A stretch of DNA of 64,000 bases from Kiritimatiellota bacterium (GTDB taxonomy: Bacteria; Verrucomicrobiota; Kiritimatiellia; JAAZAB01): positions 21,306-85,305 of the forward strand of contig JAPLSY010000030.1 of NCBI GenBank assembly GCA_026398415.1, written 5' to 3'. The translations under genes were made by a program, and so were the position numbers. This document shows positions 9,165-29,012 of the stretch, in pieces (position 1 is the first letter of the stretch; every line of letters starts with the position of its first letter). The notes beneath the pieces are model-generated. The model saw nothing but the letters and a program-made list of their open reading frames with translations. It did no database searches and was not told the origin of the DNA.

Positions 9165-9170
9165 GCCGCT

Positions 9171-12281: not shown

Positions 12282-12301
12282 AAGAAAATCGTTTTAAGAA
12301 C

Positions 12302-12350
12302 GTTCTTGGTTCTTCGTTTTTCGTTCTTCGTTAATCCGGAACGAAGAATC
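12302..12350 (+). repeat. Heptamer array GTTCTTC family (5 units) with short inverted arm
   Basis: GTTCTTG GTTCTTC GTTTTTC GTTCTTC GTTAATC followed by GAACGAAGAA; fills the hdrC-hdrA gap. Confidence 0.75.
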
Positions 12351-12359
12351 GGAAACTCT

Positions 12360-12821
12360 TTAATTCGCATTCACTTCCTCAAAGCGCTTCTTTTGGGCCG
12401 CATAGGCCGCTTTATCAGTCACCAGTTTGTTGATCAGGTTTTGTTGTATTTTAACCGCGAGCGAATTCACTTCCTTTACGTCCTTAAGCCGGTCGGCATC
12501 CACATGGCCTTCCTTGACGGCCATGGCGCGCAAAGCCTGAATGATGTCCCGGAACTTGACATTCTGAGGGCAGGTGGCATAGCAGGCGTAACACTGGATA
12601 CAGCGCCAGATCAAGGGCGATTTCAACACCTGCTGGCGCATGCCCAAAAGCACCTGGCGAATGATTTTGCGCGGATTGAATTCCTCGTCAATCCCCGCCA
12701 CCGGACAGGCCGCCGTGCATGTGCCGCAGGCATAACACAGCTTGATATTCTCGCCGCCGGGATAGGCCGCGACATCAAACTTGAACTTCGGGTCCAGATC
12801 CTTACATAAGATCGTTTCCAT
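12360..12821 (-). CDS. hdrC: Heterodisulfide reductase subunit C-like 2x[4Fe-4S] protein
   Basis: CYACGTCTAACP, FNPRKIIR, IWRCIQCYACYATCPQNV; start trimmed to METILC after AAGAGG. Confidence 0.85.
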   Translation of the reverse strand: METILCKDLDPKFKFDVAAYPGGENIKLCYACGTCTAACPVAGIDEEFNPRKIIRQVLLGMRQQVLKSPLIWRCIQCYACYATCPQNVKFRDIIQALRAMAVKEGHVDADRLKDVKEVNSLAVKIQQNLINKLVTDKAAYAAQKKRFEEVNAN

Positions 12822-12877
12822 AATTACCTCTTTCTTCAACGCATGCCCTGCTCCGCTTTCAGCGGGCCCGTCCTCTG

Positions 12878-13837
12878 TCATACCAACGGAACCGGCCTGG
12901 GCGTCAGCCCGGCCTTTTGCACGATCTCCGCCACCTTGCTTTCCCACTCAATTGCCATGAGGTGAATACCGGCCACGCCCTCGATCTGGCGCAAGGCCTG
13001 AATCTGTTCGGCACAAATAGCGATGCCCTCCGTCTTGGGCTCCTTGGATCGTTCCATCCGCTCGATATAGCTATCGGGCAATTTGATCCCGGCGACATTG
13101 TCGCGCATGTGTTTGGCCATGCCCAGGGTTCTGAGCGGGGTCAGTCCGGCCAGGATCTTGCAGCGCTTGTGCAGACCGCGGGCGCGCACAAGCTCCATCC
13201 AGCGCTGAAACCGATCCATGTCGTAAATGCATTGGGTCTGGATGAAATCCGCGCCGGCTTCCACTTTTTTCTCGAGGCGCGTGACCCGGAACTCGAACGG
13301 ATCGGCGAACGGGTTGGCGGCGGCGCCGATAAACATGCGCGGCTCATGGAGCGCGGCCTTGGCACTGGCTTTAATCTCATCCCCGCAGGCAAATATTTTT
13401 TTATCCCGCATATCCCGCACCATCCGGATCAACTGAATGGAGTCCAGGTCGAATACGTGCCGGGCCGTCGGGTGGTTGCCAAAACACTGGTGATCGCCGG
13501 TCAGGCATACCAGGTTGCGGATGCCCAGCAGGTAGGCGCCCAGAATATCGGCCTGCATGGCCAGCCGGTTGCGGTCGCGACAGGTCATCTGCATGATCGG
13601 CTCCAGCCCCAGATCCAACGCCAATTTGGAAGCGCACAGGCTGGATACCCGGACAATGGCCGTCTGGTTATCCGTGATATTGACGGCATCCACCCAGCCC
13701 CGCAGGTGATCGGCCTTGGTCTTGATGATTTCCGGGTCGGCGCTCTTAGGCGGTCCCAGCTCGGCGGTGACGATAAATTCCCCCGCCGCCATCAGTTTTT
13801 CCAGATTGCTTCCGGATTTATAGGTTGTTTCGGACAT
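12878..13837 (-). CDS. metF: Methylenetetrahydrofolate reductase, FAD subunit
   Basis: VTAELGPPK, NITDNQ, QMTCRDRNRLAMQ, LTGDH, GADFIQTQ. Confidence 0.93.
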   Translation of the reverse strand: MSETTYKSGSNLEKLMAAGEFIVTAELGPPKSADPEIIKTKADHLRGWVDAVNITDNQTAIVRVSSLCASKLALDLGLEPIMQMTCRDRNRLAMQADILGAYLLGIRNLVCLTGDHQCFGNHPTARHVFDLDSIQLIRMVRDMRDKKIFACGDEIKASAKAALHEPRMFIGAAANPFADPFEFRVTRLEKKVEAGADFIQTQCIYDMDRFQRWMELVRARGLHKRCKILAGLTPLRTLGMAKHMRDNVAGIKLPDSYIERMERSKEPKTEGIAICAEQIQALRQIEGVAGIHLMAIEWESKVAEIVQKAGLTPRPVPLV

Positions 13838-13857
13838 AATGCGTTCTTGGTTATTTA

Positions 13858-14520
13858 TCAACTATCCTGCGCAACATCTTCCCGCGTCAGCCGGCGCGGC
13901 CCGCCACAGTGGGTCTTTGACCAATCCCGCGGCGCCGCCACGGCCGTCAACGCATCCAGCTTGCCGAGGGCTTTCAGCCGGTCATGAATCAATTGCCAGC
14001 CGCACTCGATATTATCGGGGTCCACCTCGCACCTGCCGTCTTCGGACCCGCCGCAAGGGCCGTTGGAAAGCGACTTGGCGCAGCGGGTCACCGGGCAAAC
14101 CCCGCCGAACACGCCGAGCTGACAATCGCCACAGGCCAGGCAGTTTTCCGCCCATTTGCCGGCGGCTTCGTTCGTGCCCATGAATTTTGTATTCAGCGCC
14201 GGATACACCGGCTTGTCGCCGAAAAGCCGCGCCGCCAGCTGGACCCCCACCCCACAGGCCAGCGAAAGAATGGCGTCACAGGCGGTCGCCACTTCGCGCA
14301 CGGACTCGAAAAACTCGGCATCGCACTGGCGCTCGATGGTCTGCTCCACCGCCTCAAGCTTTCCGCCCAGGCGCAAGACCGACGTCAGGGTGGCCACTTC
14401 ACGTTCGCCGCCGGCCAGGCAGACCGTGACACAAGTTCCACAGCCCAGCACCAGCACCTTCCGGTGGCCCTGGAGCAATCCCATGATTTCATCCATTGGT
14501 TTTTGTTCGGCAATAATCAT
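13858..14520 (-). CDS. metV: Methylenetetrahydrofolate reductase small Fe-S/Zn subunit
   Basis: GCGTCVTVC, ERQCD, ACGVG, CLACGDC, CPVTRCAKSLSNGPCGGS..GRCE, CGW. Confidence 0.92.
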   Translation of the reverse strand: MIIAEQKPMDEIMGLLQGHRKVLVLGCGTCVTVCLAGGEREVATLTSVLRLGGKLEAVEQTIERQCDAEFFESVREVATACDAILSLACGVGVQLAARLFGDKPVYPALNTKFMGTNEAAGKWAENCLACGDCQLGVFGGVCPVTRCAKSLSNGPCGGSEDGRCEVDPDNIECGWQLIHDRLKALGKLDALTAVAAPRDWSKTHCGGPRRLTREDVAQDS

Positions 14521-14526
14521 GACGCA

Positions 14527-16581
14527 TCATTCCTTCACAAACTGCAGGAACCGGCCGGATTCGAACTCGGTCAGGTGGCCTATTCTTAGCCGCGCCCCGT
14601 CAATACCGGCCTTGGTCAACATCGCGCGCAAACGCGCCACCCGCTTGGCGCCATGATCGGCGCCAACCAGATAGCGGCAATTTTCACGATGGCATCCCAG
14701 GAGCGTAACGTTTTTGGCGCCCCGTTCGAGCGCCTGCAGAACCTGACGGGCATCTACTTTTCCCAGGCAGGGCACACGAATCAAACGCACCGCGGAACTG
14801 TATTCCGCCCGGTTGACACCGGCCAGCGTGGCGGCCGGCCAGGCGGAATGCTCGCAGGCGAACACCGTCATATCCGGTTCCACGCCGATATCAGCCCGCA
14901 TCTGCTCGTCGGTAAAACGCGGCATCTGGATCGCAACCGCCGGACACATTGTGGTGCATAATCCACAGCGCCGGCAGGCCGGCGCCGAAACGGCCGCGGT
15001 TTTGTTGGCCGCATCCACACGGATGGCGCCATGCGGACACGTGCGCAGGCACGTCAGGCACAAAACGCACCGATCGGGGTCTACCGTGGCCGCATCCTGG
15101 GGCATGGTCACGCGCCCGGAGGCGAGCAAGGCCTGAATCGCGGCAGCGGTCGCGGCGGCATCGTTCAGCGCCTCGCGGAACTCGCTGTTGCCGCGCGCCA
15201 AGCCAACCACAAACAGACCCGGTCGATTGGCAAGCACCGGGGTCAGCCAGACATTATCCGCCTGCGCCGCGCCGCCGGGCCCGCGCCGGATCAGATTTCC
15301 CGGCGCAGACAATCCATCGCCGGGACACAAGCGCGCATCCGCCATGATCGCGCATTCCACGGATTCCGTCACAACGGCCCCCGACTGAATATCCTGGTAT
15401 TCAATGTCAACTTGATTCCCGGCAGCATTGATTTTCGGCTTGGTTTTATACCGCATGATCAGGACACCGGCTTCCCGCGCCCGGCGATATAGCGCTTCCA
15501 AGCCCCAGGCCGCAACGCGGATATGCCGCGCAAAGAGCAGGACTCGGCACCGCCGGCTGCGGGCCAACCGTTCGGCGGCGGTCAGCGCCAGGGCATTGAT
15601 GATCCGTCCCTGCTCCGCGGCAAGGTCGAGAAAAATCGCCACCGATTTCGGGAAGGATTGGGCGTGCAACCGCTCAGCCAATCCGGCCAAATTCATCACC
15701 GCGCTCTTACCAGTCAGATGCTCCGGGAATGGGAACGACTCGAGTTCGCCGCAGGCCAGCGCCACCGCGCCCGCCGTTATATTCCGCGCTTGCTCCCCGG
15801 TCGTGAATGCGGCAACAAAGCGGCCGACATCCCCGCTCAACGATCGCAAGGCGGCGTTGCCGATAAAGGTAATGGCCGGATCATGGCGAACCGCTTCCAT
15901 CGTGGCGGCCATGACCTGCCGCACCGCTTGCGCGGTTTCGGCGTCCCGGTTCTCCGACTTGTCGGACGAGTCCGAGAGGCCGGTGTCATCCAGGTAACCG
16001 AAGAAATCGATCATCCGGGCGGCGCTCCCGCCCAAGTCCGGTCTGCGGCTGGCCAGCGTAACCTTGTGTCCCATGCGCGCCAGGCACAGTGCCGTTTGCA
16101 TCGCCACCAGGTCGCCGCCCAGGATAAGAACGTCGCGATTCATGGGTTCGCGTTTGGAGGCAATCGGCTCCAACAGGACGGCGCGTTCCACGGCCGCGTT
16201 AATTAACGCATTCGCCTTACGGGTGGCCGCGGCAGGATCGGCGTGTACCCAGGCGCACTGCTCGCGGATATTGAGGAACGTTGCGAGGCCATCGCCGATA
16301 CGAACACGCTTAAGCGCCGGATTCAACGCCGGGTCGAAAATTTCGCGCTCACAGGCCGCCAGCACAAGGCGACGGCAGCCCTTGGCGGCAACGGCCTTGA
16401 CCGCCTGAAGGCATCCCTTGGCATTGCACAAGCGCGATGTCACCTGCACGGCGGCCACGCCTTCCCGCGCGGCAGCAGCCTTGGCCAGCGCCTGAAAATC
16501 CAGGCGCTTGGCGAGGGTCCCGGCACAATCGCACAGGATCACGCCGACACCGTTTTTGTCTTTTTTAACAGATGGGCTCAT
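14527..16581 (-). CDS. HdrA-like (degenerate FAD module) / ferredoxin / MvhD fusion protein (QmoB-like architecture)
   Basis: N-terminal LCDC...LC...AC...NIREQCAWVH; CVLCLTCLRTCP and CRRCGLCTTMCP; C-terminal MvhD-like FACEHS, PCLGK, GCHRENCRY. Confidence 0.85.
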   Translation of the reverse strand: MSPSVKKDKNGVGVILCDCAGTLAKRLDFQALAKAAAAREGVAAVQVTSRLCNAKGCLQAVKAVAAKGCRRLVLAACEREIFDPALNPALKRVRIGDGLATFLNIREQCAWVHADPAAATRKANALINAAVERAVLLEPIASKREPMNRDVLILGGDLVAMQTALCLARMGHKVTLASRRPDLGGSAARMIDFFGYLDDTGLSDSSDKSENRDAETAQAVRQVMAATMEAVRHDPAITFIGNAALRSLSGDVGRFVAAFTTGEQARNITAGAVALACGELESFPFPEHLTGKSAVMNLAGLAERLHAQSFPKSVAIFLDLAAEQGRIINALALTAAERLARSRRCRVLLFARHIRVAAWGLEALYRRAREAGVLIMRYKTKPKINAAGNQVDIEYQDIQSGAVVTESVECAIMADARLCPGDGLSAPGNLIRRGPGGAAQADNVWLTPVLANRPGLFVVGLARGNSEFREALNDAAATAAAIQALLASGRVTMPQDAATVDPDRCVLCLTCLRTCPHGAIRVDAANKTAAVSAPACRRCGLCTTMCPAVAIQMPRFTDEQMRADIGVEPDMTVFACEHSAWPAATLAGVNRAEYSSAVRLIRVPCLGKVDARQVLQALERGAKNVTLLGCHRENCRYLVGADHGAKRVARLRAMLTKAGIDGARLRIGHLTEFESGRFLQFVKE

Positions 16582-16587
16582 GAAAAA

Positions 16588-17862
16588 TTATGCCTGTTTC
16601 AAAATCTCGGCGCACACGGCTTCCGCCTGGCCGATGGTTGCGGCGATGTCCTGCGGGTTGCCGCAGGTTCCGGCGACAAATATGTTTCGGCAATGCGTCT
16701 GCGGCAAGCCCGCCGTACCCTTGATCCCCAGAAAACCCTCTTGATCCACGGCCAGCCGCAGGCAATCAGCCAGCGCGCGCGCCGCCGGCGCGGGGCGGAT
16801 GCCGATGGAAAGAATGACCAGGTCAAACTCCGCCTTATTGACGGCGCCTTTCTCCTGATCTTCATATGCAATGACAACCGCACCCTCCGAACCGGCAACA
16901 ATCTCCACCGGCCGCGCGCGCACAAAGGTCATCGTTTTCTGGCAGGCTGCAAAAAAAGATTCGAAGTCTTTGCCGAAATTCTGGATGTCCATGTAAAAGA
17001 CCGTGACGCTCGTATCCGGTGCGTCATGCTGAATGCGCCGAGCCATGCGCAGGGCGTAAGCGCAGCAGACCGTCGAACAATAGTTGGTGTCTTCCGGCCG
17101 GCGATGGGCGTGTTCGCTGCGCGACCCGACGCACTGGATAAACGCCACGCGGCGGGGCGCGCTTCCGTCGGACAAGCGCGTGATGCGGTGCTGGCCGGCC
17201 AATTGATGCTCGGCATCCAACCCGGAGATGACATTGGGAATCACGCCGTAACCGAAAGTTCCCATCGGCCCGGGATGGAAGGGCTCATGGCCCGTAGCCA
17301 CCACAACGGCATCCACGTCCAGTTCCCGGTTTTGGGTCGGCTCTTTCCAATCGATCGCCTGGACCGGGCAGGCCTTGGCACACCGATCACAGGCCTTGTC
17401 ACGGGTGCGGCGGCAAAGCGGCAAATCCAGCACCGGCACGCCGCCATGCAAGGCCGGGTATTTGACGGAAATGCAATGCTCAGGACAAACAGCCACGCAA
17501 AGACCGCAGCCGATGCATCGCTCGCGGCGGATAATGTTCGGTTCCGTTCGCAGGGTAACACGATAGGCGGCGCCATTATTTCCCGGCACCAGCGCCACCA
17601 GTTTGGAACGGGTATTGAGCCGCACACGCGGAGCGTGGAGCGCGGCCTTGAGCCGATCGGTGGCCACGCAAACGTGACACCGCAAACAGACATCGGCGGC
17701 TTTACAGCCCATGGCCGCCGCCTGGCCGCCAATTACCGGCTCCTTTTCAACCCACTGCACGTCGAGACCAGCGCGTCCCAGGCGTTCCGCCACCGTCGCA
17801 CCGGCAATGCCTCCGCCGAGAACCAGCACGCACCGAATGGGTTTGTTGGATTTCGTTGTCAT
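16588..17862 (-). CDS. Short HdrA-like FAD/Fe-S protein (QmoA-like architecture)
   Basis: GGGIAG, VEKE..IGG, CIGCGLCVAVCP, QCVGSR...YCSTVCC. Confidence 0.85.
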   Translation of the reverse strand: MTTKSNKPIRCVLVLGGGIAGATVAERLGRAGLDVQWVEKEPVIGGQAAAMGCKAADVCLRCHVCVATDRLKAALHAPRVRLNTRSKLVALVPGNNGAAYRVTLRTEPNIIRRERCIGCGLCVAVCPEHCISVKYPALHGGVPVLDLPLCRRTRDKACDRCAKACPVQAIDWKEPTQNRELDVDAVVVATGHEPFHPGPMGTFGYGVIPNVISGLDAEHQLAGQHRITRLSDGSAPRRVAFIQCVGSRSEHAHRRPEDTNYCSTVCCAYALRMARRIQHDAPDTSVTVFYMDIQNFGKDFESFFAACQKTMTFVRARPVEIVAGSEGAVVIAYEDQEKGAVNKAEFDLVILSIGIRPAPAARALADCLRLAVDQEGFLGIKGTAGLPQTHCRNIFVAGTCGNPQDIAATIGQAEAVCAEILKQA

Positions 17863-17896: not shown

Positions 17897-18003
17897 AATG
17901 TGCCAGATTATTGGCCAGCCAATCTTGCATATTCCTGCAATTATTTAGTATATTACTGCATTACCTGGCCAATGAATGACGAGTTTTCAAAGAGAATCAG
18001 GTC
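17897..18003 (+). promoter_or_regulatory. Diverged inverted copy of the araC/metF2 intergenic region including a remnant of the araC 5' end; upstream of the hdr-met-mvh operon
   Basis: Aligns with the reverse complement of 19360-19457; remnant reads MNDEFSKRI from ATG 17972 versus MNEDFSKRI in the intact regulator; ATTCCTGC-N13-ATTACTGC repeat. Confidence 0.8.
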
Positions 18004-18149: not shown

Positions 18150-19391
18150 TTAATGCTCATGATTCAACAGATAACGGAATTTGCCGGGGGTAAGGTTGAC
18201 GGCATCCTTGAAGGTACGGGTAAAGTGGCTTTGATCCGTGAAGCCGCAGCACAGGGCAATGTCGCTGACTTTCATAGTCGTGGTGGATAGCAGGCGCCGG
18301 GCTTCCGCGATGCGCTTTTCGTGAAGCAACTGGTGAAAAGTCTTGCCGGTTTCCCGGCGCAACGTATGCGCCAGGGAGGAAACACTGGCGCCCGTGGCGC
18401 GCGCGGCGGAGGCCAGGATTGCTTTGCCGGAGTAATGACACTGGATCCAGTTCAACGCCCGATCAGGAAGCGAGCCCTCCTTCTCGGAGTACTCTTCAGC
18501 GACCAGATGCTGCTGAATCATGTCCGCCACTTCACAGCAAGCGGCTTCGATGGTGTCGGCCTTTTCAAGGCGATGCATGGAACGCAGCTCACGGTTGACG
18601 GCGGTCTCCCACGGCATACCGCGGAGCACATCCTGGCTGGTTATCACGGCCAGCAGTATGCGCAAATGCGCTTTGAGCTTGGTCAGATCCCAGTTGCTGG
18701 CCATGAGCAGTTTGGCGAGAAAAATCGAGACTAACTGACGCGTGCGCTCCCGGTCCTGCCGGTTCAAATGCAAAACCATCCGGCATGTATCCACCATGAG
18801 ATCCGACGGCGGCTGGGCAGCGTTGCGCAAAACTTCCGCTTCCTCGGCAATTTCGCGCTGTTGCAGGTAACGGGCATTCTGCCGGGCAAAGAACGCAGAA
18901 GAATTCAAGCCCGACGAGAAGGTGGCATCCATGACATACTGGCCCAGGCCGCGCAGGGCGCTCGGCGTGATCGGCTTCAGCGAATCCAACGTCTTGCGCA
19001 GCGCCGGCACATCCCGCCGGGGCAACATGTTCAGACGTTCGCCAACTGTTTCGCGGATATCCGATTCCGGGGAATAGAATCCGCCCAGCGAAATTCCACC
19101 ACGCCCGATATTGCGCGGCGCCACCGCCACGGTGACAAAGAGCAATCCCGCCCAGCATTCCGAGTAAAACGGCTCGCCGGACGATAACGCGTTCAATGCC
19201 GCGTTACAGCAGGTATGGCGGCAAAATGAACGGGCGGACGGATGCTCCAGACATTGCCGGCAAAAGTCACAGAGCGCCCCATTGCGCAATGGACCTTGCT
19301 CGCTCAGATCATGATAGACCGCACCCTGCCGGCTCACCGATCCGATTTCGTTCAGTAACGACCCGATGCGCTTTGAAAAATCTTCATTCAT
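18150..19391 (-). CDS. AraC-family regulator with PocR sensor domain
   Basis: FC...C...GEP...CWAGL PocR pattern; C-terminal KVSDIALCCGFTDQSHFTRTFK...TPGKFR. Confidence 0.9.
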   Translation of the reverse strand: MNEDFSKRIGSLLNEIGSVSRQGAVYHDLSEQGPLRNGALCDFCRQCLEHPSARSFCRHTCCNAALNALSSGEPFYSECWAGLLFVTVAVAPRNIGRGGISLGGFYSPESDIRETVGERLNMLPRRDVPALRKTLDSLKPITPSALRGLGQYVMDATFSSGLNSSAFFARQNARYLQQREIAEEAEVLRNAAQPPSDLMVDTCRMVLHLNRQDRERTRQLVSIFLAKLLMASNWDLTKLKAHLRILLAVITSQDVLRGMPWETAVNRELRSMHRLEKADTIEAACCEVADMIQQHLVAEEYSEKEGSLPDRALNWIQCHYSGKAILASAARATGASVSSLAHTLRRETGKTFHQLLHEKRIAEARRLLSTTTMKVSDIALCCGFTDQSHFTRTFKDAVNLTPGKFRYLLNHEH

Positions 19392-19457
19392 CTGCGCAAG
19401 AATGTACCATATAATTGCAGGAATATACAAGATTGATCGCCGATAATCTGGCACATT
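19360..19457 (-). promoter_or_regulatory. Divergent promoter region between araC and metF-like gene
   Basis: 21-bp-spaced direct repeat (minus strand ATTCCTGC at 19424-19417, ATTCTTGC at 19403-19396); duplicated at 17897-18003. Confidence 0.7.
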
Positions 19458-19525
19458 GCGTCACTTGCCATCGCTCGCTTTTGCAGGCAGAATGGAGCAG
19501 GCAGCATTCAGGAATTGCCAGCACC

Positions 19526-20323
19526 ATGCAACATCATATCGACAATAAAATCTATCACATCGAGATCCTGACCCCGAAGCAAAACACCGAAAAGCTCGAC
19601 GAGGATCTGGCAAAGTTCGCGGAAAAGTACACCGCCGTGGTTGGGGCTGGCTATGCGGCGTGCATCACGGATAATCCCATGGGCCATCTCAGCTTCCAGG
19701 CCACGGACATCATTCCGGAATTAGCGCTTCCCGTAAAACCCGATCAACTCATGATCCATCTCAACACCTTTCACACCAAGGATGCGATGGATCAGATTCT
19801 GGATACGGCTTCCCGGATGGGCGTAAAGTACCTGCTGGTTGTCTCCGGCGATGGCAACGAGCGGCTACCCAGACTCAAGCCCGAGGCCATTGGCGCGAAG
19901 AGCCAGGTCGTCACCTCGGTTGAGTTGCTGCGCTACATTCACCAACGTCATCCAGGGACTTTCACCTGCGGCGTGGTCTTCAATCCCTACGAGCCGCAGG
20001 ATCATGAACTGGGAAAAATGCGCCGCAAGGTGGATGCCGGGGCAAAGTTTGTGTGCACCCAGCCGGTGATCGGCAAGGATGAGCGCGTGGACGCGCTCCG
20101 GCCCTTCGGTCTGCCCATCATCATTAATGCATGGATGTCCAAGAACATTCATCTGCTTTCCGAGTGCGTGGGCTACACCATCCCGGAGAATACGCCTTAC
20201 GATCCGATGGCGAACCTTCGTCAATTGCACAGGCACTACCCGGATTGCGGCCTGTACCTTGCGCTCTTGGGCTACAAGACGCAGTTCCCGCTGCTCAAGG
20301 AAGTATTAGGAAACACGCGCTGA
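19526..20323 (+). CDS. Second, short and divergent methylenetetrahydrofolate reductase-like flavoprotein
   Basis: ACITDNPMG, LLVVSGDG, RRKVDAGAKFVCTQPV; start uncertain. Confidence 0.75.
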   Translation: MQHHIDNKIYHIEILTPKQNTEKLDEDLAKFAEKYTAVVGAGYAACITDNPMGHLSFQATDIIPELALPVKPDQLMIHLNTFHTKDAMDQILDTASRMGVKYLLVVSGDGNERLPRLKPEAIGAKSQVVTSVELLRYIHQRHPGTFTCGVVFNPYEPQDHELGKMRRKVDAGAKFVCTQPVIGKDERVDALRPFGLPIIINAWMSKNIHLLSECVGYTIPENTPYDPMANLRQLHRHYPDCGLYLALLGYKTQFPLLKEVLGNTR

Positions 20324-20381
20324 GGAAGCTGACAAAAAAGGAGGCATCATTACCACACCTTGGAAGAGATGGCGGATCGCA

Positions 20382-21605
20382 TTGATGGGGGTGCTGTTGC
20401 AACTCTGCCTGGGCACGGTTTATGCCTGGAGCTATTTCCAGAAACCGCTGGTAGCCGTCTACGGGTGTTCAAACAGCCAGATCGCTTGGGGCTTTTCGCT
20501 GGCTATTTGTTTCCTGGGCCTGTCCGCCGCCTGGGGCGGCCTTAACCTGGAACGTTTCGGACCCCGACGATTGGCCATGACGGGTGGATTCCTTTACGCC
20601 CTCGGCTACCTGATCGCCGGCTGGGCCATTGCCTCAAAATCCCTGGTCTGGCTGTATCTGGGGTTTGGCGTGATCGGCGGGATCGGCCTCGGGTTGGGCT
20701 ACGTCACGCCCGTCGCCACGGTCGCTAAGTGGTTCCCGGACAAAAAGGGACTTGTCACCGGAATGGTGGTGATGGGGTTCGGTTTCGGCGCCCTGATCAT
20801 GGCCAAGATCATTGCCCCGCTCTTGATGACGGCGACCGGACAGAATCTGCCGCAAGTTTTCTTTTGGATTTGCGGCATAATGCTTGTCATGACATTGCCG
20901 GCGGCCGCTTGTTTGCAGAATGTCCCTGCGGCCCAGTCCGGCCGGCAATCCGGCGCAACACCGGTGGCATCCGCCAAAACAGCCTTGAAATCCAGCGCCT
21001 TTAGGCTGATGTGGCTTGTATTTTTCATCAACATCACAGCCGGAATAATGTTCATCGGCTTTCAATCGCCAATGTTGCAGGATCTCATGCATGCCAAAAA
21101 TACGGAATTGACGGCAGGAGTATTGAGCGCAGCCGGCGCCACGCTCATTGCCATCAGCTCATTGTTCAATGGTTTTGGGCGGCTGTTCTGGGGCGCGATT
21201 TCCGATAAGCTGGGACAAATCCGGGTGTTCCGGCTGATTCTGATCAGCCAGATATTCGTGTTTGCCGGGCTCATCGTCGTGCGGGAACCATGGCTGTTCG
21301 GCGTATTGGTCTGTTACGTACTGCTGTGCTATGGCGGCGGATTCGGCGTCATGCCGTCGTTTACCGGAGTCATGTTCGGGCAGTCGGTCATGCCCACAGT
21401 TTATGGCACGATTCTTACGGCCTGGTCGGCCGCGGGGATTGTGGGGCCCCAGCTGGCCGCTTTCATCAAGGACCATTACGCCGAACAGGCCGGACGGCTG
21501 ACGTTCAGCGTGGCGGTACTATTACTGTTGGTGGGCGCGGCCTTGTCGTTTCGGCTTCGCCCGCCTACACCCCCCGGCAAAGGGGACAGGCCGGATTGCG
21601 GTTGA
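20382..21605 (+). CDS. OFA family (oxalate/formate antiporter-like) MFS transporter
   Basis: QLCLGTVYAWS, KWFPDKKGLVTG..VMGFG, FNGFGRLFWGAISDK, YGGGFG; start may be further upstream (ATT at 20349). Confidence 0.9.
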   Translation: MMGVLLQLCLGTVYAWSYFQKPLVAVYGCSNSQIAWGFSLAICFLGLSAAWGGLNLERFGPRRLAMTGGFLYALGYLIAGWAIASKSLVWLYLGFGVIGGIGLGLGYVTPVATVAKWFPDKKGLVTGMVVMGFGFGALIMAKIIAPLLMTATGQNLPQVFFWICGIMLVMTLPAAACLQNVPAAQSGRQSGATPVASAKTALKSSAFRLMWLVFFINITAGIMFIGFQSPMLQDLMHAKNTELTAGVLSAAGATLIAISSLFNGFGRLFWGAISDKLGQIRVFRLILISQIFVFAGLIVVREPWLFGVLVCYVLLCYGGGFGVMPSFTGVMFGQSVMPTVYGTILTAWSAAGIVGPQLAAFIKDHYAEQAGRLTFSVAVLLLLVGAALSFRLRPPTPPGKGDRPDCG

Positions 21606-22317
21606 TGCGCACCGAGCGGAACTCCAGACGCAAGGCGTTATAGGTCAGCAGGCGGTTGGTCAAAAGCTCGCCGAGCCCGAGCAGATATTTGATGGCTTCC
21701 GTGGCCTGGATGGTTCCAATCACTCCCGGCACAACACCCAGCGGACCCTGCGGCGGTTCTTTGTTGCCCGGCGGCAGCTCGTCAAACACGCACCGCAGGC
21801 AGGCGGTTTTACCCGGAATTACGGTCAGCGTCTGGCCAATGAATTTAAGTATACCGGCATGCGAATATGGTTTGCCAATGGCGTGACAGGTCCCGGCAAT
21901 CATAAATTTGGATTCGAAATTATCGGTGGCATCAATGATAAAATCATATTCCTTAAACAACCCCGGCGCATTTCCAGCGGTCAGGCGCAGATTGTGGGCA
22001 TTGATCCGAACATCCGGATTGAGTGCCGCAAAGGCGCGCGCCGCCGATTCTATTTTGAATCGCCCCAGGTCGGCGGTGGTATGCGCAATCTGGCGCTGAA
22101 GATTGCTGAGTTCAAGGGTATCGCCATCCACAAGACCAAGCGTGCCGATTCCCGCCGCCGCCAGGTAATAACCGGCGGGCGAACCCAGGCCCCCCACCCC
22201 GATCAGCAGGACGCGGCTCGCCAGCAGCTTTTTTTGTCCCGCCGCGCCAATTTCCGGCAGGCTGATTTGCCGGGCATAGCGCTGGCGTTGCGCTTTACTC
22301 AATAGTTCCACACTCAT
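21565..22317 (-). CDS. thiF: ThiF/MoeB family adenylyltransferase
   Basis: RYARQISLPEIG..GQKKL, GVGGLG, DGDTLELSNLQRQ, CLRC, RNPACPLC. Confidence 0.88.
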   Translation of the reverse strand: MSVELLSKAQRQRYARQISLPEIGAAGQKKLLASRVLLIGVGGLGSPAGYYLAAAGIGTLGLVDGDTLELSNLQRQIAHTTADLGRFKIESAARAFAALNPDVRINAHNLRLTAGNAPGLFKEYDFIIDATDNFESKFMIAGTCHAIGKPYSHAGILKFIGQTLTVIPGKTACLRCVFDELPPGNKEPPQGPLGVVPGVIGTIQATEAIKYLLGLGELLTNRLLTYNALRLEFRSVRINRNPACPLCRGV

Positions 22318-22517: not shown

Positions 22518-25500
22518 TTATCTGCTTGCGTCGTTTAACCGTCGCGAGCGCCAGATGAAAAAGATCGCGGGATAAACCACCAGTTCCATGATCGTGGAGG
22601 TTATAACGCCGCCGATCATGGGCAAGGCAATGCGTTTCATAACATCGGCGCCGGCGCCGTGGCTCCACATGATAGGAAGCAAACCGGCAATAATGACTGA
22701 AGCCGTCATGGCCTTCGGACGCACGCGCTTGACTGCGCCGTGATAGATGGCATCGCGCAGGTCGGCGAGATTACGCATGAGACCTTTTCGCTGCCATTCA
22801 CCGTATGCCAGGTCGAGATAAAGGAGCATCACGACGCCCGTTTCGGCGTCGAGACCGGCCAGCGCGATGATGCCAATCCAGACGGCAACGCTCAGGTTAT
22901 AGTGGAACAAGGCGAGGGCCCCAAAGGCGCCCACGAGCGAAAAAGGCACCGCCAGCATGACAATAATCGTTTTGACTGCGGACCGCGTGTTCAGATAGAT
23001 GATCAGGATGATGATGAGCAGCGTCACGGGCACCACGATCATCAGCCGTTGTTTGGCCCGGAGCATGTATTCATACTGGCCGCTCCAGAAGATGTTGTAG
23101 CCGGAAGACAGTTTGATCGCACCCCTGGCAATGGCTGCGTTGACGGCGCGCTGCGCCATTTGCACATAGGTACCGACATCCATGCCTTTAACGTCCACGT
23201 AAATCCAGGCATTGGGCACGGCGGCCTCGCTCTTGATGCCCATCGGGGCATGCACCGTCTCAATGGTTGCCAATTGGCCAAGAGGAATTTGCGCCCCCAT
23301 GGGGGTAGGCACGACTATTTCGCGCAAAGCGCCGAGATTTTCCCGGAAATCGCGACTATAGCGAAGGTTGATGGCGTATCGCTCCAAACCTTCGACCGTG
23401 GTGGTCAGAGGCATGCCGCCCAAGGCCACTTCCAGGATATCCTGAACGTCGCCAACCTTAAGGCCGTAGCGGGCAATGGCGTCGCGGTCGATCGTGAACT
23501 GGATGTAGTTGCCGCCCATGGTGCGCTCGGCGAACGCGCTTAGCGTGCCGGGCACGGTTTTCACCACGGCCTCGATCTCGGAAGCGATGCGCTCCAGTTC
23601 GCCCAGATCCGCTCCCGCCACTTTGATACCAACCGGGGTCTTGATGCCGGTGGCGAGCATGTCAATGCGCGTCTTGATGGGCATCGTCCAGGCATTGTTG
23701 AGGCCGGGAAACTGGATCGCTGCATTCAGGGCGTCAACCAGTTCGTCCGGCGTGCGTCGGCGATGAGCAATGATCTTTCCCTCGGCATCCTTGATATCCA
23801 CGACCGGCCACGTCTTTTCGTCTTTAAGCATGATCGTGGTTTCGAGCATATCGAACGGCGCCGGGTCCGTGGCGGTCTCGGCGCGGCCAATTTTGCCGAA
23901 GACACGATGCACCTCCGGAAACGTCTTGATAATTTTGTCCGTCTGTTGAAGCAGCTCACGCGCTTTGGTGGGCGAAATACCCGGGAACGTGGTCGGCATG
24001 TACAGCAAATCGCCCTCATAAAGCGGGGGCATGAACTCCGAGCCGATGTTTTGATAGGGAAAGAACTTACCCGCTTTGAAGGCCAGTTCCTTGACGCGGC
24101 CGTCCGGCAGCCGTTGCGCCGCCAAGCGGTTCCAGGGAAGAAATACCCAGATGATGAGCGCGGCCGCGGTAACGATGACCGCCCAGCGCCATTTGATGAC
24201 AAAATCAATGACGGGATGATAGAGCCAGATGAGAAAGCGATTAATGGGGTTCTGCTCTTCGTGCGGGATCCTGCCCCGGATGAAGAAGCCCATCAGGATC
24301 GGCGCCAGCGTGATGGAGAGTATGGCGGCCGCGGCCATCGAATAGGTCTTGGTGAAGGCCAAGGGCTTGAACAGCCGCCCCTCCTGGGCCTGGAGCGTGA
24401 ACACGGGCAGGAACGAGACCGTGATGACCAGCAGGGAGTAGAACAAGGTGGGCCCCACTTCGACGGCCGCGTCACGGATGATCGCCCAGTGGGGTTTTGC
24501 GCCCTGGTCGCGCTCCATGTGCTTGTGGGCGTTTTCGATCATGATGATGGCCGCATCCACCATCGCGCCGATGGCAATGGCGATCCCGCCGAGCGACATG
24601 ATGTTGGAACTGATGCCCTGGCCAAACATGATCAGGAACGAAATCAGCACGGCCATCGGCAGAATGGCGATAGCGACCAGTGCGCTGCGCAAGTGCATCA
24701 GGAATACGATGCACACCAGCGCCACGACGATGCTTTCCTCGATCAGTTTCTCTGCCAGCGTCTTGACGGCGCGATCAATCAGCGCGCTGCGGTCATAAGC
24801 GACGGTATAGCGCACGTCCGGCGGCAGCCCTTGCATGGCCTGGTCGAGCTTCTTCTTCACATCAAGAATGACCTGGCGGGCATTGGCGCCGTAGCGGACC
24901 ACGACGATGCCGCCCACGGTTTCACCCTCGCCGTTCAACTCGGCAATGCCGCGCCGCATGTCCGGGCCGAACTCCACGTTGGCAACCTGCCCAAGGAGAA
25001 TCGGCACGCCCTGGCCATCCACGCCGAGCGCGACTTTACGCAAGTCATCTAATTGCTGCACGTAACCGCGCACACGGAGGATGAATTCCTTCTCCGCCAA
25101 CTCGATGGAACGACCGCCTACCTCCCCATTGCTGCGCCGGATGGCCATGGCCACATCCGAGATCGAAAGGTTGTAGGCGCGCAGTTTGGTCGGATCCACG
25201 GTCACTTGGTATTGCTTGACAAAGCCGCCGAGGGAGGCGACCTCGGACACGCCCTCCACGGCGGAAAGTTGGTATTTTAAATACCAGTCCTGCATGGAGC
25301 GCAGTTCGGCAAGGCTACGGTTGGTAGAGTTGATGGCGTACATAAACGCCCACCCGACGCCCGTGGCATCCGGGCCGAGACTGGGCGTTACGCCGGCTGG
25401 GAGCCGGCCGCTCAAGCCGCTCAGGTACTCGAGCACCCGGCTGCGCGCCCAATACGGATCGGTTCCGTCCGCGAAGATCACATATACAAAGGAAAAACCG

Positions 25501-25763
25501 TAGAACGAGTAGCCGCGCACCACCTTCGCTTTGGGCACCGAGAGCATCTTGGTCGTGATCGGGTAAGTGACCTGGTCCTGGATGATCTGCGGCGCCTGAC
25601 CCGACCACTCGGTATAGATAATGACCTGCACATCCGACAGATCGGGAATCGCGTCGAGCGGAATGTTGCACACCGCGTAAACACCGCCTAACGCCAGTGC
25701 GATCGTTCCCAGCAAGACGATGAATTTGTTCTTGAGCGAAAAATCGATGATTCCTTGGAGCAT
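22518..25763 (-). CDS. cusA: CusA/CzcA family heavy-metal RND efflux permease
   Basis: LDAIPDLSDVQVII, GYSFYGFSFVYVIF, GAMVDAAIIMIEN, RVRPKAMT; start trimmed to MLQGIID. Confidence 0.93.
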   Translation of the reverse strand: MLQGIIDFSLKNKFIVLLGTIALALGGVYAVCNIPLDAIPDLSDVQVIIYTEWSGQAPQIIQDQVTYPITTKMLSVPKAKVVRGYSFYGFSFVYVIFADGTDPYWARSRVLEYLSGLSGRLPAGVTPSLGPDATGVGWAFMYAINSTNRSLAELRSMQDWYLKYQLSAVEGVSEVASLGGFVKQYQVTVDPTKLRAYNLSISDVAMAIRRSNGEVGGRSIELAEKEFILRVRGYVQQLDDLRKVALGVDGQGVPILLGQVANVEFGPDMRRGIAELNGEGETVGGIVVVRYGANARQVILDVKKKLDQAMQGLPPDVRYTVAYDRSALIDRAVKTLAEKLIEESIVVALVCIVFLMHLRSALVAIAILPMAVLISFLIMFGQGISSNIMSLGGIAIAIGAMVDAAIIMIENAHKHMERDQGAKPHWAIIRDAAVEVGPTLFYSLLVITVSFLPVFTLQAQEGRLFKPLAFTKTYSMAAAAILSITLAPILMGFFIRGRIPHEEQNPINRFLIWLYHPVIDFVIKWRWAVIVTAAALIIWVFLPWNRLAAQRLPDGRVKELAFKAGKFFPYQNIGSEFMPPLYEGDLLYMPTTFPGISPTKARELLQQTDKIIKTFPEVHRVFGKIGRAETATDPAPFDMLETTIMLKDEKTWPVVDIKDAEGKIIAHRRRTPDELVDALNAAIQFPGLNNAWTMPIKTRIDMLATGIKTPVGIKVAGADLGELERIASEIEAVVKTVPGTLSAFAERTMGGNYIQFTIDRDAIARYGLKVGDVQDILEVALGGMPLTTTVEGLERYAINLRYSRDFRENLGALREIVVPTPMGAQIPLGQLATIETVHAPMGIKSEAAVPNAWIYVDVKGMDVGTYVQMAQRAVNAAIARGAIKLSSGYNIFWSGQYEYMLRAKQRLMIVVPVTLLIIILIIYLNTRSAVKTIIVMLAVPFSLVGAFGALALFHYNLSVAVWIGIIALAGLDAETGVVMLLYLDLAYGEWQRKGLMRNLADLRDAIYHGAVKRVRPKAMTASVIIAGLLPIMWSHGAGADVMKRIALPMIGGVITSTIMELVVYPAIFFIWRSRRLNDASR

Positions 25764-25795
25764 AAAACCGTTTCCTGTTCGACTTAGTGCTGATG

Positions 25796-27550
25796 TTACG
25801 GCGCAACCGGTCCCGGAGCGATGGCCGGATGCTGTTGCCGCCATTCAGCCGGCGTCGGCTTCGGAGCTTCCATCACCGGGATGAGGGTCATGCCGCATGC
25901 CGGACACTTGCCCGGTTTGTCCAAGTGGACATCGCTGTGTTCAGGCATGGGACAGGCATAATAAAGCAGCTTGCCGCCCGGTGGCAGCTTGCTTAACGTC
26001 GCCGGTGAAATCGGCACCAGCGTCATCCCGCAAATAGGACATTGGCCCGGATGATCGTATTCGATCGAGACATGTTCGGGCATTGGACAGAGGTAAACCA
26101 GCTTTTCCGGTTTCGCCGGCATCGCCATGGCGGTTTGGGCGGGAGCTGTCTCGCGAACCGCTGCCGGGGCGGTGGCGGCCGGCTGGCCGGGCTTGATCAT
26201 TTTCTGGATGGCCTCGCGCAGTTGACTTTCTGAATCAAGCATGAACTGGCCTGAGGTGACAATTTTTTCGCCTTCATTCAGCCCGCTGAGGACCTGGTAA
26301 TAATCGTTCTCCGCCTGCGGACCGAGCGTGACGGTGCGCGGGTCGAAACGTCCGCCTGCCAGGGCCACAAAAACAGTGTTCTTTTCGCCGCTGCGGAGGA
26401 TGGCCGAGTCGGGCACCAGCAGGACCGAGGGCTCCAATTCAGAGGTGACGGTGACCGAGGCAAACATACCCGGTTTGAGGAAAAATCCCGGGTTATGGAA
26501 CTCCATGCGCACGCGGGCAGTGCGGGTCTTTTCATCCACATTCGGATAGATGTAGGTCACGCGGCCGCGGAACTGGCGACCCGGCAGGTAAGAGAGTGCC
26601 ATGGCCGCTTCCTGGCCCAGTTTGAGATAGACGATATCCTGTTCGTAAATCTGCGCATAGACCCAGACCAGCGCCAGGTCGGCCAAACGATAGATTTTCA
26701 TGCCGGGATCCACCATCTGGCCCTCAACCACATTTTTTTCGACGACAAAACCATCAATGGGCGAAAGGATGCGCAGGGTTTTCCTGGGCTGGAGCGTTTT
26801 CTCCAGTTCGGCAATCTGTTCGTCCGAGATATCGAAGTATTTCAACTTGGTGAAGGCACTGGTTCTCAGCACATCTTTCTTCAGCACGGCGTTGACGGGA
26901 GAAGCAAGTGCCGTCAGATATTCGGCTTGTGCGCTGTAAAGTTCCGGCGAGTAGATTTCGAAGAGCGGTTCGCCGCGGTGCACCTGCTGGCCGGTGGCGT
27001 CCACATATAACTTTTCAATCCAACCTTTGAACTTGGTGGTCACGTCAGCCAAGGACGGCTCGTTATAATCGATCGTCGCCACGCTGCGTATCGTCCGACG
27101 CAACGGGCCGCGGATAACCTCGGCGGTGCGGATACCCATATTCTGGATTGTCACCGGGTCAATCGTAATGGTGGACGATTCGGCTGTGGCCGCCTCGTCT
27201 GCATACACCGGCAGCATGTCCATGCCCATGCTGTCCTTACCCGGCGTCTGGCGCACTTCGCACGGGAGCATAGTGGATTTGTAGTACTTGACCTCTCGCT
27301 CAGTGGAACCGGCGCCGACGCCGACCTGCTTGCGAATCCTGGTCAGTTTCATCCCGCAGATGGGGCAGTTGCCCGGTTTGTTTTGAATCACCTGGGGGTG
27401 CATGCCGCACGTGTAGAGCTGTTCGGATTTTGCTTCGCGTGCGCTCCTGTGGTCCGGAACGGATGGTTTCAGGAAGAGTACCCCGGCGGCGACAATAAGC
27501 GCCGCCACAACCACCGTAAAAGTTAGCGTGAGTTTTATTTTTGTTTTCAT
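25796..27550 (-). CDS. cusB: CusB family RND periplasmic adaptor with four heavy-metal-binding modules
   Basis: YTCGMHP..PGNCPICGMKL, PGKDSMGMD, YSPELYSAQAEY, two C-terminal CPMPEH...PG.CP.CGM modules. Confidence 0.9.
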   Translation of the reverse strand: MKTKIKLTLTFTVVVAALIVAAGVLFLKPSVPDHRSAREAKSEQLYTCGMHPQVIQNKPGNCPICGMKLTRIRKQVGVGAGSTEREVKYYKSTMLPCEVRQTPGKDSMGMDMLPVYADEAATAESSTITIDPVTIQNMGIRTAEVIRGPLRRTIRSVATIDYNEPSLADVTTKFKGWIEKLYVDATGQQVHRGEPLFEIYSPELYSAQAEYLTALASPVNAVLKKDVLRTSAFTKLKYFDISDEQIAELEKTLQPRKTLRILSPIDGFVVEKNVVEGQMVDPGMKIYRLADLALVWVYAQIYEQDIVYLKLGQEAAMALSYLPGRQFRGRVTYIYPNVDEKTRTARVRMEFHNPGFFLKPGMFASVTVTSELEPSVLLVPDSAILRSGEKNTVFVALAGGRFDPRTVTLGPQAENDYYQVLSGLNEGEKIVTSGQFMLDSESQLREAIQKMIKPGQPAATAPAAVRETAPAQTAMAMPAKPEKLVYLCPMPEHVSIEYDHPGQCPICGMTLVPISPATLSKLPPGGKLLYYACPMPEHSDVHLDKPGKCPACGMTLIPVMEAPKPTPAEWRQQHPAIAPGPVAP

Positions 27551-27557
27551 AAAGCGA

Positions 27558-29012
27558 TCAGGGCTTTGGGTTTTGCGTGGCGGCGGACGAAGGGACCAGG
27601 AGCGGCGCATTTACCGGCGGCGTTCCCAGGATAATAAGACTGAGTTCGGCAAGGACGAGTTCGCGTTGGGTGTGCGCTTCAATCTCGGCCAGTTGAAAAT
27701 TAAGCAGGGTTCGCTCGGCATCAATCAGGTTGAAAAAATCAATCCGGCCAGCCAGGTAGCCGGAGCGGGCAACTTCCAGCGACTGCCGCGCTTTGGGGAT
27801 CAGTTGTTCCTGCAACAGGGCCAGATTGCGGCTGATCTCGCGGAAGGCAAACGTTTGTTCGGCGAAATCCATGGCCAATGTAATCTGTTCTCCGGTGAGC
27901 CGGGCTTGGGCCGCGCGTTTGTCGGACTGCGCGGCAGCAATTTCAGCGGCGATTTTGTCGCGCCAAACGGGCAGGGTCATGCCGAACAAAGGGCGGAACA
28001 TCGTGGGCGCGGCTTTGACGTCGGCCATGAGGCCCAAGCCAAAATCCGGCACGCGCGTCTTATAGGCCAGGTCCAGCGCTGCTTCGGCACGCCGCACATC
28101 GGCCTCCATTGCTTTGAGACGAGGGTTCCGGACAAAGGCTTCCGCCAACAACCGGTCGGAAGTCAAGTCAAGCGGTGTGGATTCAAAGCGCGCCGGCACC
28201 GGCGGATTGGATTGTTCCGCCGTCAAGCCCAAGGCTGCCTTCAGCCGGGCCAGGAGCGGCTCTCTCGAGTCTTCCAGATTAGCAATGTCGGTCGCGAGCC
28301 GATCCTCTTCAATCTGGGCGCGCAACACGTCTTGCAACGTCACCCGGCCCACGTCATTCTGTGCACGGGCAATTTGTTCCAATTCCATCAGCAGGTTCAA
28401 CATCTGGCGGTTGATGCGGATGCGCTCATCCAGGAAATACGATTGATAATAGGCCCGTTTGAAGGCAAAGGCGGTCTGCAGGACGACGGATTCAAAGGTG
28501 AAGTATTTCGTCTGGCTCTCCGCCGAAGCCGCCTGGGCGCGCAAGCCAAGCTTGCCGGGACCCGGAAATTCCTGCATCAGCCCCGGCATGACGGTCATCA
28601 CCACGTCGGCAATATCGCTCTGGAACGTCAACTGGGGATCGGGCAGGGAACGTTCGACCGTAATGCGCTCGACCGATGCGACCCAATCATAATACGCCGA
28701 CTCTACTTGCGGGTGGTTCAACATGGCGAACCGCAAGAAGTCGTTCAGCGGCGAGTTGGTCGAGAGCGTCGGCATCGCCGGCCGCTGACCGTTGGGCCGG
28801 TAAATTGTTTCGATCGCTTGTTGATTCCGATGCGCCGCTTTCTCCCCGGGCGACTGAACACCCACACAACCGACCAGCAGGAAAACCATAGCAAAACCGC
28901 CGAGAACCAAGCATAGCCAGGACCCGCCGCGCATCGCATCCACGCTGAGGACGGCATCCATTCCCCGGCATGGGTCCCACGGTCTTTTTCCAATCCCTTT
29001 CTTCGTTTTCAT
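27558..29012 (-). CDS. TolC family outer-membrane efflux lipoprotein (CusC-like)
   Basis: Lipobox LLVGC, SLPDP, GYLAGRIDFFNLIDAER; start uncertain. Confidence 0.85.
   Translation of the reverse strand: MKTKKGIGKRPWDPCRGMDAVLSVDAMRGGSWLCLVLGGFAMVFLLVGCVGVQSPGEKAAHRNQQAIETIYRPNGQRPAMPTLSTNSPLNDFLRFAMLNHPQVESAYYDWVASVERITVERSLPDPQLTFQSDIADVVMTVMPGLMQEFPGPGKLGLRAQAASAESQTKYFTFESVVLQTAFAFKRAYYQSYFLDERIRINRQMLNLLMELEQIARAQNDVGRVTLQDVLRAQIEEDRLATDIANLEDSREPLLARLKAALGLTAEQSNPPVPARFESTPLDLTSDRLLAEAFVRNPRLKAMEADVRRAEAALDLAYKTRVPDFGLGLMADVKAAPTMFRPLFGMTLPVWRDKIAAEIAAAQSDKRAAQARLTGEQITLAMDFAEQTFAFREISRNLALLQEQLIPKARQSLEVARSGYLAGRIDFFNLIDAERTLLNFQLAEIEAHTQRELVLAELSLIILGTPPVNAPLLVPSSAATQNPKP

Follow-up and report, generated by a model that had tools for sequence, protein, structure and literature searches.

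How methyl groups carried by tetrahydrofolate (THF) are oxidised in anaerobes, and what accepts their electrons, is a long-standing open point in one-carbon (C1) energetics. The question is raised by two adjacent genes in a 64,000-nt stretch of DNA from a Kiritimatiellota bacterium (hereafter the window, meaning the whole stretch analysed, to which all coordinates refer unless another contig is named). The first gene (19526-20323, plus strand) encodes a small protein with the methylene-THF reductase (MTHFR) fold, designated MetFs, and the second (20349-21605, plus strand) encodes a carrier of the major facilitator superfamily (MFS). What are these two proteins for? The answer favoured here, with a probability of about 0.5, is that methyl-THF is oxidised to formate and that the formate is exported by the carrier. 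The host is an uncultured, apparently non-acetogenic anaerobe that degrades sugars and polysaccharides in lakes, represented by a metagenome-assembled genome (MAG) of the class Kiritimatiellia from freshwater and lake samples (3.29 Mb, 93% complete). The MetFs family is widespread (lake, gut, rumen, termite, and sediment) and placed exactly where an enzyme for methyl-THF oxidation would be expected; the window, which comes from a sugar degrader, adds a variant accompanied by a separate regulator, by an MFS carrier with links to formate, and by a partner operon linked to hydrogenase. The pair itself is a lineage-local combination of two families with putative functions.

The MetFs Protein

MetFs (265 aa, ATG start) is a member of a distinct family of ~262-aa proteins, and its homologues begin at the same Met. 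The original prediction, made from the letters of the window, had described a MetF-like protein of ~265 aa that is strongly divergent from a second MetF encoded in a nearby operon and has no MetV partner, and this description holds in each part. The Pfam MTHFR profile (PF02219) is passed weakly, with 38.3 bits against a cut-off of 24, and only profile positions 10-181 of 287 are covered. MetFs and the operon MetF (12878-13861) have 23% identical residues in an alignment of 167 (E 3e-5). No MetV (PF12225) gene lies beside MetFs, the sole MetV of the window belonging to the operon MetF, and no MetV cluster occurs among the neighbours in 81 MetFs loci. The scores against the MTHFR equivalog models TIGR00676 and TIGR00677 (25.3 vs 293.7 and 30.5 vs 310, respectively) fall below the cut-offs, and a single-sequence search of the PDB with MetFs found only yeast MTHFR (E 0.005).

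The fold is recognised more readily than the sequence. An AlphaFold2 model of MetFs, built from 20 family members, has a pLDDT of 92.1, and the top 50 matches of this model in a Foldseek search of the PDB are all MTHFRs (E 3.5e-12 to 2e-8, TM-scores of 0.62-0.72); MetFs is thus predicted to adopt the MTHFR β8/α8 barrel. Glu13, Asp109, and Gln179 are invariant in an alignment of 20 family members with seven canonical MTHFRs, and so are the pairs Gly108-Asp109 and Thr178-Gln179 in alignments with canonical MTHFRs. We take these three residues to be the counterparts of Glu28 (the acid catalyst), Asp120 (the folate-binding Asp), and Gln183 of Escherichia coli MetF. The family profile aligns the central motifs to yeast and human MTHFR, and a TDNPMG-type motif on strand 2 is common to MetFs and anaerobe-type MetF. 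MetFs differs by the deletion of a loop after strand 4 and of ~13 residues after strand 7, the latter presumably corresponding to the Phe223 loop of E. coli MetF. At presumed flavin-contact positions, the family has a nearly invariant His78 and Lys168 and commonly Thr48. Judged from these conserved features, MetFs is probably a genuine methyl-THF/methylene-THF oxidoreductase; that it contains flavin is likewise probable, being favoured by the linkage of its relatives to the electron-transferring flavoprotein genes EtfBA.

Distribution and Gene Neighbourhoods of the MetFs Family

The MetFs family comprises 1132 clusters at 90% identity, mostly of 262 aa, with 64-89% identity among the 120 best matches listed. 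In a 50%-identity library, only ~30 representatives were found at E<1e-30, and canonical MTHFRs first appear near E 1e-5; in the phylogenetic tree, a long branch separates the family from canonical MTHFRs. At least 281 species genomes hold a member, distributed over Kiritimatiellia, Verrucomicrobiota, Lentisphaerota, Aminicenantes, Acidobacteriota, Planctomycetota, Spirochaetota (including termite Treponema), and Clostridia. No description of a short or Etf-linked MetF family was found in the literature, of which few subscription journals were covered, and the family is apparently undescribed.

For the analysis of neighbourhoods, all open reading frames (ORFs) of 80 MetFs loci and the window (81 in total) were clustered and the clusters named with Pfam; clusters c9, c12, and c13 are shadow ORFs within real genes. 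A pterin-binding methyltransferase is present in 55 of the 81 loci, mostly directly upstream of MetFs. EtfB follows at a median of 11 nt downstream in 42 loci, with EtfA after it in 41. Further recurrent neighbours are the formate-THF ligase Fhs (33 loci), a regulator with PocR and AraC-family domains (20), FolD (18), a corrinoid protein (14), the formate channel FocA (8, on the same strand after EtfA or Fhs), homocysteine S-methyltransferase (7), an MFS carrier of the oxalate/formate antiporter (OFA) family (7), and PurH (5). In some relatives from the Planctomycetota-Verrucomicrobiota-Chlamydiota (PVC) group, the operon order is PocR-AraC, optionally S-methyl_trans, Pterin_bind, Fhs, MetFs, FolD, and optionally PurH. 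In one Aminicenantes MAG (L087), five consecutive ORFs match the pterin-binding domain and are followed by two small-MetF matches; these ORFs were called mechanically, and some may be fragments of one gene.

The Etf proteins encoded beside MetFs relatives are, on sequence, of the bifurcating type, scoring 205-231 bits against bifurcating Etfs (CarD, C. difficile, A. fermentans, T. maritima, and LctB) and 60-115 bits against non-bifurcating ones. Etf-linked MetFs genes form one clade with 99% support. MetFs of the window and four close relatives, which have PocR-AraC upstream of MetFs and an MFS gene downstream, lie outside this clade. An MFS gene instead of EtfB-EtfA directly follows MetFs in the window, and the genome's own EtfBA is unlinked, on contig 43 (L088 of G000, region 7578-12867), its EtfA carrying an N-terminal ferredoxin domain. 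No recognisable dehydrogenase lies beside EtfBA on contig 43; two Pfam-less ORFs of 480 and 471 aa are situated directly upstream on the same strand. A predicted complex of MetFs with its own EtfB and EtfA scored 0.72, a value that is unspecific (0.56 with EtfA replaced) and counts neither way.

Co-occurrence was also considered among 201 sampled genomes of the window's class, which are kin and not independent, so that only counts are given. MetFs is present in 28 of them. EtfB was rejected as co-occurrence evidence of a partnership, because it is found in 25 or 26 of these 28 genomes but also in 111 of the 201 overall, and follows phylogeny. The pterin methyltransferase is present in 26 of the 28 MetFs-positive genomes versus 39 of the 173 others. 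MetFs is an extra enzyme besides the housekeeping MTHFR: a second MTHFR, of the canonical or YitJ type, is present in four of the five further MetFs genomes that were tested. Separate roles for the two reductases are clearly illustrated by the closed genome G051 (L179 and L180), in which a pterin methyltransferase is paired with canonical MetF, while PocR-AraC, a pterin methyltransferase, Fhs, and MetFs stand together elsewhere.

The Carrier Encoded Downstream of MetFs

Regarding the second gene, the ORF list gives a TTG start at 20382, which yields the gap of 58 nt after the MetFs stop stated in the original prediction. An ATT at 20349, leaving a gap of 25 nt and giving a protein of 418 aa, is more likely to be the start, because the conserved N-terminus (K-R-W-R-I-A) is encoded upstream of the TTG, because a Shine-Dalgarno box (AAGGAGG, 20338-20344, plus strand) lies 4 nt before the ATT, and because relatives repeat this arrangement of box and ATT with the same spacing (L008 and L011) or have ATG at that codon (L095). 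This would be a rare AUU start, and less carrier than MetFs may be translated as a result. A convergent ThiF/MoeB-like gene (21565-22317, minus strand) overlaps the carrier gene at its 3′ end by 41 nt (21565-21605), as it does in another locus (L001).

The only Pfam match of the carrier is MFS_1 (108 bits). Its best NCBIfam model is that of the L-lactate transporter SfMCT (NF049980), narrowly missed at 318.5 bits against a cut-off of 320, and the second-best is the OFA subfamily model TIGR00890 (184.3 vs 374.85); OxlT (TIGR04259) is missed as well (152 vs 335). The OFA label given earlier is therefore adequate for the family, but not for the subfamily or for OxlT. Among proteins of known structure, SfMCT, the L-lactate:H+ symporter of Syntrophobacter fumaroxidans (PDB 6g9x; PMC6573034), is matched with 133 bits and OxlT with 93 bits.

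Oxalate/formate exchange of the OxlT type, to which the original prediction had referred, is not supported by the binding site. In OxlT of Oxalobacter formigenes (PDB 8hpk), for which formate is a substrate, the two carboxylates of oxalate are held by Arg272 and Lys355, the second by Lys355 (PMC10070484). The carrier is of the same MFS family and retains the Arg, as part of the Asn-x3-Arg motif of transmembrane helix (TM) 8, and the Tyr of TM4; however, the position of Lys355 is occupied by Trp, which is invariant in five orthologues, and no oxalate genes lie near the carrier. Compared with SfMCT, the equivalents of the lactate-pocket residues Tyr119, Asn276, Arg280, Tyr331, and Phe335 are conserved, whereas Leu145, Phe359, and Cys362 are changed to Phe, Leu, and Trp, respectively. 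The protein thus probably carries monocarboxylates in a pocket that is altered and probably tighter, and, because of the Lys355 replacement, it is probably no oxalate exchanger. By analogy with SfMCT, proton-coupled transport is likely.

The likely substrate is formate, because the orthologues adjoin genes for formate dehydrogenase, Fhs, or MetFs in 28 of 80 metagenome loci (48-86% identity, with one weaker at 43%). Formate dehydrogenase genes account for 20 of these loci, Fhs for six, and MetFs for two more; when only the 55 loci of at least 5 kb are considered, 21 are formate-linked. The case that the original prediction had set against itself, carrier homologues never linked to C1 genes, is thereby removed. 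Recurrent neighbours are the alpha and NuoF-like subunits of an NAD-type formate dehydrogenase, FdhD, and Fhs, and no lactate gene is among the recurrent neighbours in the 80 loci. In ten loci (L133, L134, L140-L142, L145, L147, L152, L154, and L165), the context is another recurrent one, the carrier orthologue being preceded by a single-Cache sensor, by a Peripla_BP_6 periplasmic binding protein, or by the two together. In two loci (L043 and L099), the carrier is part of an Fhs-MetFs-EtfBA operon, in the slot that is occupied elsewhere by FocA. The pairing of MetFs and carrier, for which conservation had been asked, recurs in three lineages with carriers of 51-57% identity (L032, L043, and L099), although it is confined to seven of the 81 MetFs loci. 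Formate export by OFA proteins has been voiced for syntrophs, with no test found (PMC12008871), and no tested MFS formate carrier was found in the literature covered. Automatic annotation would probably label members of this carrier subfamily wrongly as lactate or oxalate/formate transporters.

A Shared Promoter Element and a Hydrogenase-Linked Partner Operon

The shared promoter motif reported earlier is present in two copies, 47 of 54 aligned columns being identical. Copy 1 (19405-19457, plus strand) reads towards the MetFs-MFS pair, and copy 2 (17897-17950, minus strand) reads towards the hdr-metVF-mvh operon (5498-17862, minus strand), 34 nt before its first gene. When both boxes of the element are required with at most four mismatches each, these are the only two sites in the 3.29-Mb genome; isolated single-box matches with two mismatches elsewhere look like chance, and a candidate third site near 34008-34035 is only weakly similar. 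The element is conserved before the MetFs homologue of a related locus (L008) and more loosely in another (L010). A sigma-54 promoter was rejected as an explanation of the element, which contains TGGCAC but no TTGC at the right spacing.

The partner operon, as identified with Pfam and NCBIfam, consists of ten genes, encoding an HdrA-like protein, HdrA/MvhD, MetV (13858-14520), MetF, an HdrC-like protein, a large HdrA-like protein, MvhD, the small and large subunits of a [NiFe] hydrogenase, and a HycI protease. Between the two copies of the element, and divergent from MetFs, lies the gene for a PocR-domain AraC-family regulator (18150-19454, minus strand) with PocR, HTH_18, and HTH_AraC domains. 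It passes the PocR profile (PF10114) with 25.5 bits against a cut-off of 23.9 and matches HTH_18 with 78 bits, and it scores 49.6 against 500 for the Salmonella PocR equivalog. Its true start is probably ~26 codons inside the listed GTG, because homologues have 408-439 aa. This regulator would act on the shared element at both promoters.

Proposed Route from Methyl Groups to Formate

As mentioned above, methyl-THF oxidation with formate export is the reading favoured for the pair. Methyl groups from methylated substrates would be transferred to a corrinoid protein and then, by a pterin-binding methyltransferase, to THF. Candidates for both proteins are encoded in the window on the minus strand: the pterin-binding methyltransferase at 32037-33050 (Pterin_bind, 77.6 bits) and the corrinoid protein at 33220-33885 (B12-binding and B12-binding_2 domains; 77% identical to the corrinoid protein of L029). 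MetFs, working in parallel to the hydrogenase-linked MetFV-Hdr complex, would convert methyl-THF to methylene-THF; FolD and Fhs would carry the carbon on to formate with the gain of one ATP at Fhs; the MFS carrier would export the formate, probably with a proton; and H2 or NADH would take the electrons. One PocR-AraC regulator, acting through the 54-column element, would switch on MetFs-MFS and the hdr-metVF-mvh operon together. Inferred in this scheme are which way the carbon flows, whether MetFs carries a flavin and what accepts its electrons, what the carrier transports, and that the regulator pairs with the operator.

The gene content of the genome is consistent with such a route. It contains one Fhs, one FolD, one OFA carrier, two PFL-like enzymes, and one bifurcating-type EtfBA, and three proteins with the MTHFR fold, namely MetFs, the operon MetF, and a YitJ-type fusion of homocysteine S-methyltransferase and MTHFR domains (a 650-aa open frame on contig 61, 4261-6039; L091 and L176). 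Neither CdhC/ACS nor FocA was found in the 93% complete genome, nor was any molybdopterin oxidoreductase, and hence no formate dehydrogenase. With these not found but Fhs and FolD available, the pathway could plausibly end at formate. In a sugar degrader for which searches revealed no acetogenesis genes and no formate dehydrogenase, this suggests that methylated sugars supply formate and H2 to lake food webs. The original prediction had likewise proposed formate as an exported product of methyl oxidation; the contexts of carrier and MetFs bear out the links to formate and C1 metabolism, and export is the favoured direction.

One difficulty is energetic. By established redox values, oxidation of methyl-THF is endergonic with NAD+ or H+ as the acceptor, and strongly so with H2 as the product; therefore, some coupling is needed. 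The uncoupled electron route that had been predicted for MetFs is not supported, for two reasons: in half of the family, genes for bifurcating-type EtfBA belong to the same operon, and MetFs of the window has its promoter element in common with the hydrogenase-Hdr-MetFV operon. The Etf-linked clade suggests, by analogy, confurcation as in the lactate dehydrogenase-Etf complex. The window copy lies outside that clade; its electron acceptor is possibly the unlinked EtfBA of contig 43.

Weighing the Alternatives

Several observations weigh against oxidation and export. Nothing in the MetFs sequence or neighbourhood of the window displays the coupling that is needed; the genes for ACS, formate dehydrogenase, and FocA are not proven absent from a genome that is 93% complete; the MetFs-carrier pairing is limited to few lineages; and the profile that the carrier matches best is that of a lactate transporter. 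Furthermore, most formate-linked carrier orthologues adjoin formate dehydrogenase, implying uptake there, and some PVC relatives of MetFs are encoded in anabolic-looking operons (formate to methionine) together with a homocysteine S-methyltransferase module and PurH. The last two points favour the chief competing explanation, an anabolic role, in which formate, imported or derived from PFL, is converted by Fhs and FolD to methylene-THF, which MetFs reduces to methyl-THF for methionine. A three-part B12-dependent methionine synthase would then be formed by the pterin-binding and corrinoid proteins of the window and a homocysteine methyltransferase on contig 21, and PocR-AraC would tune the system to the supply of B12 or methyl groups. 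The contig-21 enzyme, a stand-alone S-methyl_trans protein, is 58% identical to a MetFs-linked one, MetE was not found in the genome, the PVC operons combine MetFs with Fhs and FolD, and a three-part MetH is proven in Phaeobacter (PMC5764234). However, a YitJ-type homocysteine methyltransferase/MTHFR is already available in the genome, four of the five MetFs genomes tested keep a second MTHFR, and G051 has two separate pairs of pterin methyltransferase and MTHFR. A promoter element held in common with a ten-gene hydrogenase-Hdr-MetFV operon is out of scale for methionine supply, and the occurrence of FocA and bifurcating EtfBA in relatives suggests that flux is catabolic. A purely anabolic pair thus appears rather unlikely, yet it may be partly true alongside methyl oxidation, with the same hub running both ways, as judged by analogy with a bacterial methyl-transfer hub that serves both purposes (PMC12478193).

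Two further explanations concern one protein each. The carrier could move lactate, pyruvate, acetate, or another small monocarboxylate, its position after MetFs being a lineage-specific accident. Its near-passing score for the SfMCT model, SfMCT as its closest PDB relative by sequence, the five conserved lactate-contacting residues, and the rarity of the pairing would be explained in this way, but the absence of a recurrent lactate-utilisation gene in 80 loci, 28 of which contain formate dehydrogenase, Fhs, or MetFs, would not. Recurrence of the pairing in three lineages, the placing of the two genes 25-58 nt apart under one promoter, and three substitutions that should change the pocket, including the invariant Trp, make a carrier of this kind, with no connection to C1 metabolism, improbable. 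MetFs, for its part, might not function as an MTHFR; it might bind folate or pterin but catalyse another reaction, use NADH without flavin as the Mfr enzymes of mycobacteria do, or serve as a subunit without catalytic activity. Such a role would be compatible with scores far under the equivalog cut-offs, with the unmatched last third of the Pfam profile, and with the ~13 residues deleted after strand 7. The Mfr structures 7wmz and 8bgr are among the fold matches at similar scores; they rank below flavin enzymes, however, and sequence and profile searches found no match between MetFs and Mfr. The high conservation of the family with its three invariant catalytic residues, its constant linkage to Fhs, FolD, and pterin methyltransferases, and the EtfBA of one clade, which is sensible only for flavin-mediated redox chemistry, render this explanation highly improbable.

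Comparison with Known Systems

A parallel has been published for an aerobe. In Ruegeria pomeroyi, the product of metF2 (SPO1862), a gene downstream of that for the pterin-binding MtgD, is the most induced protein on methylated osmolytes and was proposed to oxidise methyl-H4F, and the same corrinoid hub also makes methionine (PMC12478193). As in the window, a second MetF paralogue stands beside a corrinoid/pterin methyl-transfer system as an entry to folate-linked C1 oxidation. The Ruegeria role was derived from proteomics, and its gene has no dedicated carrier, PocR regulator, or partner operon linked to hydrogenase. The 80 best MetFs loci include no alphaproteobacterium, and SPO1862 is likened here by context, not by family placement.

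The methylene-THF reductases of acetogens have been divided into five groups, and coupling to EtfAB was proposed for them, although matching genes were not found (PMC8515935). The MetFV and MetFV-HdrABC-MvhD types catalyse the reaction predicted for MetFs and share the barrel and the TDxPMG motif with MetFs, and the window holds one of them under the same promoter element. MetFs differs in that it lacks MetV, has 23% identity to the operon MetF, is ~60 residues shorter, and is set apart by a long branch; none of the five published groups is a stand-alone ~262-aa or Etf-linked protein (PMC8515935). A more far-reaching proposal is also conceivable, although it is less likely than not. MetFs would be the catalytic subunit of a sixth, undescribed methylene-THF reductase class that passes electrons to an EtfAB of the bifurcating type, whose genes are part of the operon in Clostridia and spirochaetes but lie in trans in this genome. 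Non-acetogenic polysaccharide degraders could thereby oxidise methyl groups to formate while forming NADH or H2 as the reduced product, the carrier would be the first formate:H+ exporter of the MFS type, and PocR-AraC would tie both proteins to the hydrogenase-Hdr-MetFV machine in a single regulon for methyl disposal.

The methyl-THF/methylene-THF couple is nearly isopotential with lactate/pyruvate. Therefore, the same confurcation logic could apply as in LctBCD of Acetobacterium woodii (PDB 7qh2) and further bifurcating Etf complexes, with which the 42 MetFs loci directly followed by bifurcating-type EtfB/EtfA may be compared. The window differs in that its MetFs is no member of the Etf-linked clade, and the single EtfBA of the genome is found on a different contig. 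To our knowledge, no MTHFR-Etf complex has been shown. As for the carrier, channels of the FocA/FdhC type (FNT family) occupy the same operon slot after MetFs-EtfBA or Fhs in eight relatives and are presumed to be its functional counterpart, but they are unrelated to it in fold and mechanism.

Further Features of the Locus

Metatranscriptome contigs from a single lake study show mismatch-free alignments to the regulator, to MetFs (19343-19569 and 19733-19956), and to the carrier (20635-20845 and 21216-21587), which is weakly compatible with transcription of all three genes; coverage of the genes by these contigs is partial, neither its gaps nor its depths are meaningful, and the matches can neither rank nor prove expression.

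In two related loci (L010 and L011), ThiF alone separates the MetFs-MFS pair from the genes for the pterin methyltransferase and the corrinoid protein. The window has an additional region (22518-31343) between its MetFs-MFS-ThiF unit and its pterin/corrinoid genes, which encodes a cusA/cusB/outer-membrane efflux block, an amidohydrolase, and thiG. Because the two units are adjacent in the related loci, this region looks like an insertion or a rearrangement.

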